DNA from: a virus
Taxonomy: Duplodnaviria > Heunggongvirae > Uroviricota > Caudoviricetes
Virus record (IMG/VR): IMGVR_UViG_2671180755_000028
Direction: 5' to 3' (one strand)
DNA length: 18,440 nt
Notes under the pieces: generated by a model
What the model saw: the letters and a program-made list of their open reading frames with translations, nothing else
Databases searched by the model: none
Told to the model about the DNA's origin: nothing
Translations under genes and position numbers: made by a program
Shown here: positions 1,563-2,525 of the stretch, piece after piece
Layout: every line of letters begins with the position of its first letter
Position numbering within the stretch: position 1 is the first letter of the stretch

Positions 1563-1677
1563 TTTTTTGCTCTCAACGTAAGCGGTAGCTCATTCTGTTG
1601 GGTTGGTGCAGTTGCTTTTAGGAAATGCTATTTACCCCTTAAACGTCGGCTGAAAGAGCTAAAATCCATGCAAAAAA

Positions 1678-1700
1678 TTTACGCAATTTTGTGTATTATT
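1678..1700 (+). promoter_or_regulatory. Candidate sigma70-type promoter for the AT-rich membrane-protein gene
   Basis: TTTACG at 1678-1683 and TGTGTATTAT, an extended -10-like element, at 1690-1699. The spacing is not ideal, so this is tentative. Confidence 0.25.
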
Positions 1701-1712
1701 GTGCAGTAAGTA

Positions 1713-2315
1713 ATGAGCTATTTTCTGCGCAAAAAATGGATGGTAAATTTGTCCGGGGCAGGAAAAATTTTATGGGCGCTAAACATGAAAAAAGATTCGT
1801 ATCCTTATTTGATTTGCATGACAGTTTTAGGCCTGATCTTTATTTTCCTTTTCTTCTGGTGGCGGGCAGATATTTACAGGGTCACGTTTCTTAATCAGAG
1901 TATATCCCACTATTACATTCTGTTTAGCATGGGAATAGCTTTTCTGTTATCTCTGTTTTGGGTTAAGAAGGGGATAGTAAAACAAAGCGGCTGGAAGAGT
2001 CTGTCAGCATACCTTAAGGTTTATGCAGGGATGTGCATATTTGCTGGATTTTTTCTGATTATACCCCTTACAACACTAACTTATTTTTTGCCTGGAGAGA
2101 CATCGTCTTATGTTGCACCGTATCGGTATACTTCCGGTAGTTCAAAAAGTTGTTCTGGAGCTGAGGTGGATGACCCCGATCTACATGAGAATATTCGCAT
2201 TTGCTATCCGTATGGCAATTATGAGTACGATAATATTATCTATGTTGAAAAGAAAATTAATACATTAGGTGCGGTAGTAACATATGCACAGACCGCGCGT
2301 GATGATACTGAATGA
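1713..2315 (+). CDS. Hypothetical multi-pass membrane protein, 200 aa, encoded on the strand opposite to the surrounding early-left genes
   Basis: Three hydrophobic segments (LICMTVLGLIFIFLFFWW, YYILFSMGIAFLLSLFWV, VYAGMCIFAGFFLIIPLTTLTYFL) and a roughly 80-aa hydrophilic C-terminal tail. The DNA is markedly AT-rich compared with its neighbours. The start is ambiguous: ATG at 1713, 1740 or 1785. Confidence 0.55.
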   Translation: MSYFLRKKWMVNLSGAGKILWALNMKKDSYPYLICMTVLGLIFIFLFFWWRADIYRVTFLNQSISHYYILFSMGIAFLLSLFWVKKGIVKQSGWKSLSAYLKVYAGMCIFAGFFLIIPLTTLTYFLPGETSSYVAPYRYTSGSSKSCSGAEVDDPDLHENIRICYPYGNYEYDNIIYVEKKINTLGAVVTYAQTARDDTE

Positions 2316-2349
2316 GATAGTATATAGCGGGCAAGTTTTAGTTAATTTA

Positions 2350-2373
2350 TCGAGGTAATATAATTTACCTCGA
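2350..2373 (+). terminator. Candidate terminator hairpin downstream of the membrane-protein gene
   Basis: Perfect 9-bp stem TCGAGGTAA / TTACCTCGA with loop TATAAT, followed by CTCGTTTATTC, which is only moderately U-rich. Confidence 0.35.
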
Positions 2374-2525
2374 CTCGTTTATTCTGGTATTAATATTTCG
2401 CTTTACGATCGATTTTTATCTGATGATATCATGCGGTTTTCATATACTGACTTACTGTCTTTTCTCCGTTAGCGATTTTCTCCTGCTCAGCGATGATTTT
2501 ATCTTTGGCTTCTAGTTAATTTCGC

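Follow-up and report, generated by a model that had tools for sequence, protein, structure and literature searches.

A probably self-contained accessory cassette in the exo-xis region of a 434-type lambdoid prophage encodes a predicted three-helix membrane protein with a C-terminal β-barrel and has relatives in the P2 hotspot

We have analysed a stretch of tailed-phage DNA of 18,440 nucleotides (Caudoviricetes; IMG/VR record IMGVR_UViG_2671180755_000028), referred to here as the window, and report that it carries a 973-bp island of low guanine-plus-cytosine (GC) content at positions 1541-2513. It is best understood as a moron, a self-contained accessory unit that has taken the place of ea8.5 and ea22 within the exo-xis part of lambdoid prophages of the 434 type. 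Its single gene most likely encodes a protein of 176 residues, and structure prediction strongly supports a product made of three transmembrane (TM) helices and a C-terminal five-stranded β-barrel of the oligonucleotide/oligosaccharide-binding (OB)-like type. Moreover, sequence comparison strongly supports the view that this cassette is mobile, passing from one to the other of two sites, its place in lambdoid prophages and the gpA-gpQ hotspot of P2-like prophages. From this context we tentatively propose that the protein could act in superinfection exclusion at the cell envelope.

The window comprises the early-left and immunity part of a lambdoid prophage, in the order int, xis, orf55, island, a TraR-like zinc-finger gene, orf63/orf60a-type genes, exo, bet, N, cI, O, a dnaB-type P gene and the nin genes. 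With blastn, window positions 1-1540 align to lambda 27812-29355 (97.5% identity) and positions 2514-3700 to lambda 30380-31567 (97%). The island, situated between orf55/xis and the TraR-like gene, has no counterpart in lambda and stands in place of lambda 29356-30379 (1024 bp; ea8.5 and ea22). A first-pass annotation made from the sequence alone had located an island of non-lambda DNA at 1620-2520, close to the limits given here, and had taken it for an insertion between xis and the early-left genes. An atypical unit has indeed been acquired at this position, but lambda DNA was replaced (973 bp for 1024 bp) and the event was not a pure insertion. The low GC content noted in the same annotation was borne out by computation: the GC fraction of 1620-2520 is 0.372 against a window mean of 0.464 (standard deviation 0.040, 901-bp windows), only 0.3% of the 901-bp windows are as GC-poor, and the island lies at 37-38%.

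Comparison of the junction across related phages revealed the same flanks enclosing ea8.5 and ea22 in lambda and the island in phages 434, 2B8 and mEp332; window positions 1480-2560 are 99.8-99.9% identical to 434 and 2B8, and 98.7% identical to mEp332. The slot between shared flanks is thus differently filled, with a content of deviant base composition. We assign the island to the morons because of this atypical composition, its single gene, its own predicted signals and its orientation against the repressed early operon. Lambda ea8.5 and ea22 occupy the same genome position, but are read from the other strand as members of the pL operon and have soluble products, and the homology left to them amounts to five ea22 codons only. 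The cassette points against the pL operon, as would be expected of a unit whose transcription does not depend on the repressed early genes.

The only long open reading frame (ORF) of the island runs from 1713 to 2315 on the plus strand. Its presence and its orientation opposite to the neighbouring genes agree with the first-pass annotation, which had placed one gene for a multi-pass membrane protein on the acquired unit; the start codon probably does not. Two starts are on record, namely 1713 (200 residues; RefSeq and the first-pass annotation) and the TTG at 1749 (434 record). The most likely start is instead the ATG at 1785, 72 nt downstream of 1713, which gives a gene at 1785-2315 (plus strand) and a product of 176 residues. 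This choice is made because every distant homologue starts at the residue aligned to M25 of the longer frame, because the natural variants P0022, P0028 and P0029 have frameshifts upstream of M25 and an intact remainder, and because a conserved extended -10 element (1741-1749) lies downstream of both ATG 1713 and ATG 1740. The extension 1713-1784 was therefore rejected as coding, being missing in distant homologues, frameshifted in variants and more variable than the core (7 of its 24 positions vs 21 of 176, Fisher p = 0.05).

The gene is conserved in related prophages, and the ratio of nonsynonymous to synonymous substitution rates (dN/dS), 0.04-0.10 against E. coli and Salmonella relatives, indicates strong purifying selection. 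Absence of conservation and an unexceptional composition, which the first-pass annotation had named among the grounds for giving up its interpretation, are thus both contradicted by the data. A search of a large protein database returned 74 relatives, and an exhaustive profile search of 1.84 billion representatives gave 57 matches at E <= 0.001. The inspected homologues measure about 165-200 residues and share the same layout. One might argue that the frame is a chance ORF in AT-rich recombination junk, given that it has no family annotation and that its annotated starts differ between records. Conservation refutes this idea, and its probability is close to nil in view of the dN/dS values, the homologues across about ten Enterobacterales genera, the confident structural models and the conserved regulatory elements.

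An AlphaFold2 (AF2) model of the 176-residue protein, computed with the family alignment, has a predicted local distance difference test score (pLDDT) of 87.6 and a predicted template modelling score of 0.74; the C-terminal domain modelled alone reaches a pLDDT of 88.8. The model contains helices at residues 5-29, 38-61 and 70-101; a short strand occupies 34-36, and five strands follow from residue 105 to residue 171. Hydropathy analysis likewise gives three hydrophobic segments and a soluble tail of about 75 residues, so that the three TM helices and the soluble tail of about 80 residues predicted in the first pass are confirmed by both methods. Loop 2 carries four positive and no negative charges, while the C-terminal tail carries six positive and twelve negative ones. 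Application of the positive-inside rule to these charges predicts that the N-terminus and loop 2 are probably cytoplasmic, and loop 1 and the barrel periplasmic. Conservation is highest in two motifs, YRVTFL in loop 1 and CSGAxVxDPxL...IxICxP in the barrel, with the two cysteines and the loop-1 residues T34, F35 and L36 being invariant or nearly so. The two conserved cysteines flank a β-hairpin in the barrel, and a periplasmic disulfide between them is plausible. Furthermore, loop 1 may pack on the barrel, since the model forms a strand at residues 34-36.

The remote homology search proposed in the first-pass annotation yielded a single family, PHROG 1416 (function unknown), which matches the C-terminal 88 residues and is the sole match within PHROGs. 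Searches of Pfam and NCBIfam with the protein gave none matching, PADLOC-DB v2 gave no match at E <= 1 for the window protein and three homologues, a sequence search of the PDB gave no match, and a Foldseek search of BFVD returned nothing at E <= 0.001. The element is ordinary in kind, as a moron, and its protein is an orphan belonging to a widespread family.

The island is found in 915 of 5426 complete E. coli genomes (~17%), every time in the chromosome. Examples are a defective O157:H7 prophage at ybhC and a torI-type remnant with IS4. Of 79 IMG/VR loci, 64 are lambdoid, with traR and exo as neighbours, and 14 are P2-like with the invariable order portal, gene, gpA. Homologues of 47-79% identity from E. 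coli, Salmonella, Enterobacter and Klebsiella always lie between the portal gene gpQ and gpA of P2-like prophages. The gpA-gpQ interval is an anti-phage hotspot, where old and tin reside in P2 (Rousset et al. 2022, PMC9122126). The homologues thus count as cargo of this hotspot, while the window copy itself sits in a lambdoid prophage. Indeed, system #4 in Table S5B of PMC9122126, described as '3 TM' with no Pfam match and 470 occurrences, belongs to the same family: its protein aligns with the window protein over the full length with 51% identity (E = 3e-56), its architecture is alike, and it is a single-gene cargo as the window protein is. The two copies differ in location, system #4 being placed between gpA and gpQ of P2-like prophages and the window gene belonging to a lambdoid prophage, where xis/orf55 and the TraR-like gene flank it.

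One further locus was found in a 3.5-kb contig from GTDB (L108), binned with a Candidatus Nanosynbacter metagenome-assembled genome (Saccharibacteria). It contains the island, the TraR-like gene and exo with 98% identity to an E. coli prophage, and is almost certainly a contamination of the bin.

The unit shared between the two phage types extends beyond the gene. Window positions 1648-2422 align by blastn with positions 5864-6636 of L014, an E. coli P2-like prophage, at 76% identity, and positions 1617-1652 align in addition. These limits define a putative mobile cassette at 1617-2422 (plus strand), made of a regulatory region, the gene and a hairpin, with homology that takes in about 140 bp in front of the gene. 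Identity amounts to 78% over the 130 nt upstream and rises to 90% from -70 to -31, but is 59% at third codon positions, and the upstream region is therefore under constraint. Within it, three TTGTGCA-like direct repeats with a 10-bp period (TTACGCA, TTGTGTA, TTGTGCA; 1679-1705, plus strand) are candidate regulator sites. In the P2-like cassettes from E. coli, Salmonella and Enterobacter, each repeat is perfect and the spacing uniform. A repeat search also revealed an operator-like near-palindrome, ATTTTCTGCGCAAAAAAT (1720-1737, plus strand), which is kept in our alignment A4 and has a symmetric centre, TACGTA, in one Salmonella copy.

Just 3' of this near-palindrome lies the predicted extended -10 element TGGTAAATT (TGnTAnnnT; 1741-1749, plus strand), which is invariant in alignment A4 (TGnTAAATT). 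In 9 of 12 loci, among them distant P2-like copies and a chromosomal one (Cedecea), it precedes the ATG by 44-48 nt, and it predicts a transcription start near 1756. The alignment further contains a Shine-Dalgarno-like element, TGGG or GGAG. A generic sigma-70 scan found no site scoring at least 9/12 upstream of the gene; the candidate promoter of the first-pass annotation is thus not recovered by a general search, but the conserved extended -10 makes a promoter plausible.

Downstream of the gene, the perfect hairpin with a 9-bp stem that had been noticed in the first pass is exactly present at 2350-2373 (plus strand; arms 2350-2358 and 2365-2373) and is followed by a weak T tract. With a folding energy of -12.9 kcal/mol (z = -3.1), it is likely the terminator of the cassette. 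Covariation is limited to one compensatory change from A-U to G-C in L014 and a G-U pair in L012, and the L014 hairpin itself is weak (-8.0, z = -0.8). An Rfam scan of 1250-2800 found no RNA family. The left arm of the hairpin is overlapped by TCGATAAATT at 2344-2353 (minus strand), identical to what we take to be the high-affinity H-NS motif; this would fit silencing of the cassette.

The direct repeats bear on a different function, in which the gene would serve phage development by modulating the lysis-lysogeny decision, CII activating it at TTGT-N6-TTGT during the establishment of lysogeny. The 434 GenBank record labels that motif, at window 1689-1702 and thus inside the repeats, as a CII site, and lambdoid copies carry TATTTT 16 nt downstream of it. 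The exo-xis location is also consistent with such a role, since genes of this region affect lysogenisation (PMC7093339, PMC3824215). Nevertheless, the window has four matches to the TTGY-N6-TTGY pattern where chance predicts 4.45, and about 40 bp separate the site from the conserved -10 downstream of it, a spacing unfit for a CII promoter. The repeats are kept in P2-like prophages, which have no CII, and chromosomal homologues exist outside phages. A CII-dependent promoter has no support above the chance level, and a part in phage development appears quite improbable. Because the pattern count is at chance and the repeats are kept in P2-like phages, it is more likely that the repeats would be read by a host regulator than by CII. 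The other matches to the pattern in the window are at 6535-6548 (plus strand), at 9691-9704 (minus strand), the latter near cI/cII and possibly pRE, and at 1276-1289 (minus strand), which is the CII site of pI as annotated in 434.

The function that we favour, with somewhat less than even confidence and from context, is superinfection exclusion at the level of the envelope, by which the lysogen would be protected from other phages. The cassette would be expressed in the lysogen from its own promoter, probably under the control of a host factor, as the upstream repeats are kept in both lambdoid and P2-like carriers. The periplasmic face of the protein would then interfere with the formation or the use of the DNA-entry channel of an incoming phage at the inner membrane. 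A benefit to the lysogen is inferred because two unrelated temperate-phage families carry the cassette, because one of the two sites is a defence hotspot, and because the cassette is kept in decayed prophages. Block at the entry step is favoured because the functional face is predicted to be periplasmic and the protein has no cytoplasmic domain. In the P4 hotspot, six of eight loci of unknown function were found to be protective (PMC13586616).

The type of mechanism would be that of SieA from phage P22, as an analogue and not a homologue. SieA of P22 is a 162-164-residue protein of the inner membrane with three predicted TM domains that blocks DNA injection (PMC10883804). Both are products of prophage-borne accessory genes (separately transcribed in P22), and both are small inner-membrane proteins, the window protein by prediction, with three predicted TM segments. 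In SieA, however, the soluble segment lies between TM1 and TM2, the C-terminus is short and there is no C-terminal β-barrel, whereas the window protein ends in a 75-residue barrel. The activity of SieA is demonstrated, that of the window protein is proposed. Alignment of the family profile by hhalign gave a probability of 0.1% with P22 SieA (one of three SieA sequence types) and of 0.25% with P22 SieB.

Homologues of the window protein occupy the locus of old and tin of P2 and are unrelated to Old and Tin in sequence and architecture. These two are soluble proteins of the cytoplasm, and their action follows DNA entry. Gp15 of HK97 is comparable in that its gene is a moron, equipped with a terminator, of a lambdoid-type siphophage, and in that it is a membrane protein; it prevents the entry of DNA. 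As a homologue it was discarded: it has only 62 residues and is encoded among the tail genes, compared with 176 residues, three TM helices and a barrel here.

The first-pass annotation had guessed at a superinfection-exclusion, abortive-infection or conversion factor. The hotspot context of the homologues supports this guess indirectly; the protein matches no known exclusion or defence family (PADLOC, SieA and SieB negative). Abortive infection would mean that the protein senses infection, permeabilises or depolarises the inner membrane and kills the cell, like RexB-type effectors. The hotspot context applies equally to such an effector, a single-gene system in the hotspot fits it, and transmembrane proteins of known systems are believed to be suicide effectors (PMC9122126). 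The protein nevertheless has neither a cytoplasmic sensor domain nor a partner gene, its three helices show no obvious pore-lining pattern, and its conserved surface, loop 1 and the barrel, is predicted to be periplasmic, a better fit to a block of entry. We consider an abortive-infection effector improbable.

Several points weigh against exclusion at the envelope. Lambda plates on 434 lysogens, as known from classical lambda/434 genetics, and lambda itself is therefore an unlikely target. AT-rich DNA of this kind is often silenced. The literature search found no functional study of the gene, and neither sequence nor fold relates the protein to SieA, SieB, the PADLOC families, solved structures or viral predicted structures. 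Moreover, the system #4 sequence is absent from the tables of tested systems of PMC9122126, and not all cargo of the hotspot is defensive, the commonest listed P2 cargo being a StbA/Plasmid_stab_B pair (PMC9122126). Finally, stable copies of the gene without phage context in Enterobacter, Serratia, Klebsiella, Cedecea, Pantoea and others suggest a cellular role.

Such stand-alone copies, on chromosomes or chromids, were found in Enterobacter, Serratia, Klebsiella, Cedecea, Pantoea, Citrobacter, Phytobacter, Pseudescherichia and Kosakonia, bringing the homologues to a span of about ten Enterobacterales genera. In Enterobacter the gene lies between a LysR gene and a GGDEF gene, in Serratia it comes downstream of ptsG, in a Klebsiella species it neighbours a bgl-type phosphotransferase system (PTS), and in Pantoea it is carried on megaplasmids; there is no constant partner gene. 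These copies raise the question of a lysogenic-conversion or housekeeping envelope factor unrelated to phages, which would benefit the host directly through stress tolerance, transporter modulation or immunity to a periplasmic toxin or bacteriocin. Bacteriocin immunity proteins are typically small inner-membrane proteins with periplasmic domains, the non-phage positions are conserved in a genus-specific manner, and the repeats kept across phage types point to host regulation. On the other hand, there is no consistent partner gene or toxin neighbour, and the heterogeneity of the chromosomal contexts is what is expected of a roaming accessory gene. The phage copies, for their part, occupy two accessory loci, one of them a recognised defence hotspot (PMC9122126). 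An envelope factor of this sort is accordingly the main rival to exclusion, with what we would set at a clearly less than even chance.

Some of these contexts could offer a lead, if a weak one, to a possible target of exclusion. PTS EIIC genes directly adjoin the homologues in Serratia (L107, L112 and L124; ptsG) and in Klebsiella sp. (L023/L121; bgl-type). Phages of the lambda and HK97 types use PTS EIIC proteins of the inner membrane as entry factors (reference 77 of PMC10883804). This adjacency concerns only 2 of about 10 independent chromosomal contexts, and was not seen in the other genera examined. In its most extended form, exclusion would mean that the protein founds a single-gene family of envelope anti-phage proteins, whose periplasmic OB-like barrel and loop 1 block genome translocation at the inner membrane, maybe via a host entry factor such as PTS EIIC, and whose cassette, with a promoter under host control through the three repeats, shuttles between the exo-xis region and the P2 hotspot; taken as a whole, this picture is speculative and we regard it as rather doubtful.

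The DNA itself was already known: it has been sequenced in 434 and in thousands of genomes and labelled 'hypothetical' or 'putative membrane protein', and a family member has been catalogued. The genome announcement of 434 is silent on the gene (PMC9119081). New here are the corrected gene model, the description of topology and fold, the delimitation of the cassette together with the regulatory elements conserved in it, and the connection of the exo-xis island of lambdoid phages to the P2 hotspot. The cassette is present in the classical phage 434 and in O157:H7 prophages, and a relative ranks fourth by frequency among the cargoes listed for the P2 hotspot. The cassette illustrates in concrete terms how a single regulated unit is exchanged by two temperate-phage families that are unrelated. 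If defensive, it would help to explain phage host range in E. coli and Salmonella lysogens; if not, it would be a conserved envelope protein of Enterobacterales that phages have repeatedly borrowed.

At the left border of the island, the first-pass annotation had seen a degenerate ORF at the ea8.5 position as an insertion scar. This interpretation does not hold, as tblastn of the whole window found no homologue of Ea8.5 or Ea22. The ORF concerned, at 1377-1562 (minus strand) with a GTG start, was dismissed both as a gene and as an ea8.5 remnant: it overlaps, in another frame, an intact orf55 (98% by tblastn) and has no family matches. The hairpins within this ORF, two tandem terminator-like stem-loops at 1490-1509 and 1521-1540 (minus strand; -21 kcal/mol, z = -3.3), belong to the lambda-homologous flank, directly left of the island and outside it, and the M60848 record annotates t-L4 at the position equivalent to one of them. 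ORF 1539-1709 (plus strand), the 'putative membrane protein' of 434, was likewise rejected, for it straddles the junction between lambda and island DNA and falls outside the conserved cassette.

The right recombination junction is marked by the first five codons of a lambda-type ea22 (GTG-S-E-I-N) followed by TAG, at 2512-2529 (minus strand). Lambda Ea22 begins VSEINSQ, with GTG as the normal ea22 start; nothing of ea22 is kept from 2529 to 2512 beyond the five codons and TAG, and lambda homology resumes at 2514. Next to it, a start-less frame of 28 codons (LEAKDKIIAEQEKIANGEKTVSQYMKTA; 2515-2432, with its stop 2429-2515, minus strand) is probably, on weak grounds, the tail of an Ead/Ea22-like gene. 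Window positions 2472-2515 are 77% identical to L014 6713-6756, inside a frame-shifted Ea22-like frame that adjoins the L014 cassette. This L014 frame (6531-7070, minus strand), of Ead/Ea22-like type, lies beside the homologous cassette and starts with MSEINYQALRE, like lambda Ea22. From this arrangement it seems that more than the gene alone was carried into the P2 hotspot in L014, namely a piece of a lambdoid exo-xis region.

Other features of the window lie outside the island. The lambda-type int (960-1075, minus strand) has a 4-bp deletion, ATGG, near position 1001 relative to lambda, 434 and the O157:H7 copy, resulting in a frameshift after about codon 21; either the prophage is unable to integrate or excise alone, or the deletion is an assembly error. 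At 1291-1311 the window does not contain the 345-bp ORF114 which 434 has between xis and orf55; the window is lambda-like at this point, where two blast segments meet with a 21-bp overlap, and must therefore be regarded as a mosaic distinct from 434. In the interval from N to the cI-type repressor, a region that often holds exclusion genes (rex, sieB) in lambdoid phages, there is an ORF of 173 residues (7531-8052, minus strand) with a match to PHROG 2602 (function unknown), searches of Pfam and PADLOC with it being empty. A second low-GC patch in the nin region (about 14200-15700) is as GC-poor as the island. It contains an ORF of 197 residues (14678-15271) with an empty Pfam search and matches to anti-repressor-like PHROGs, and this ORF is followed by ORF6N/P22_AR_C and KilAC anti-repressor genes.

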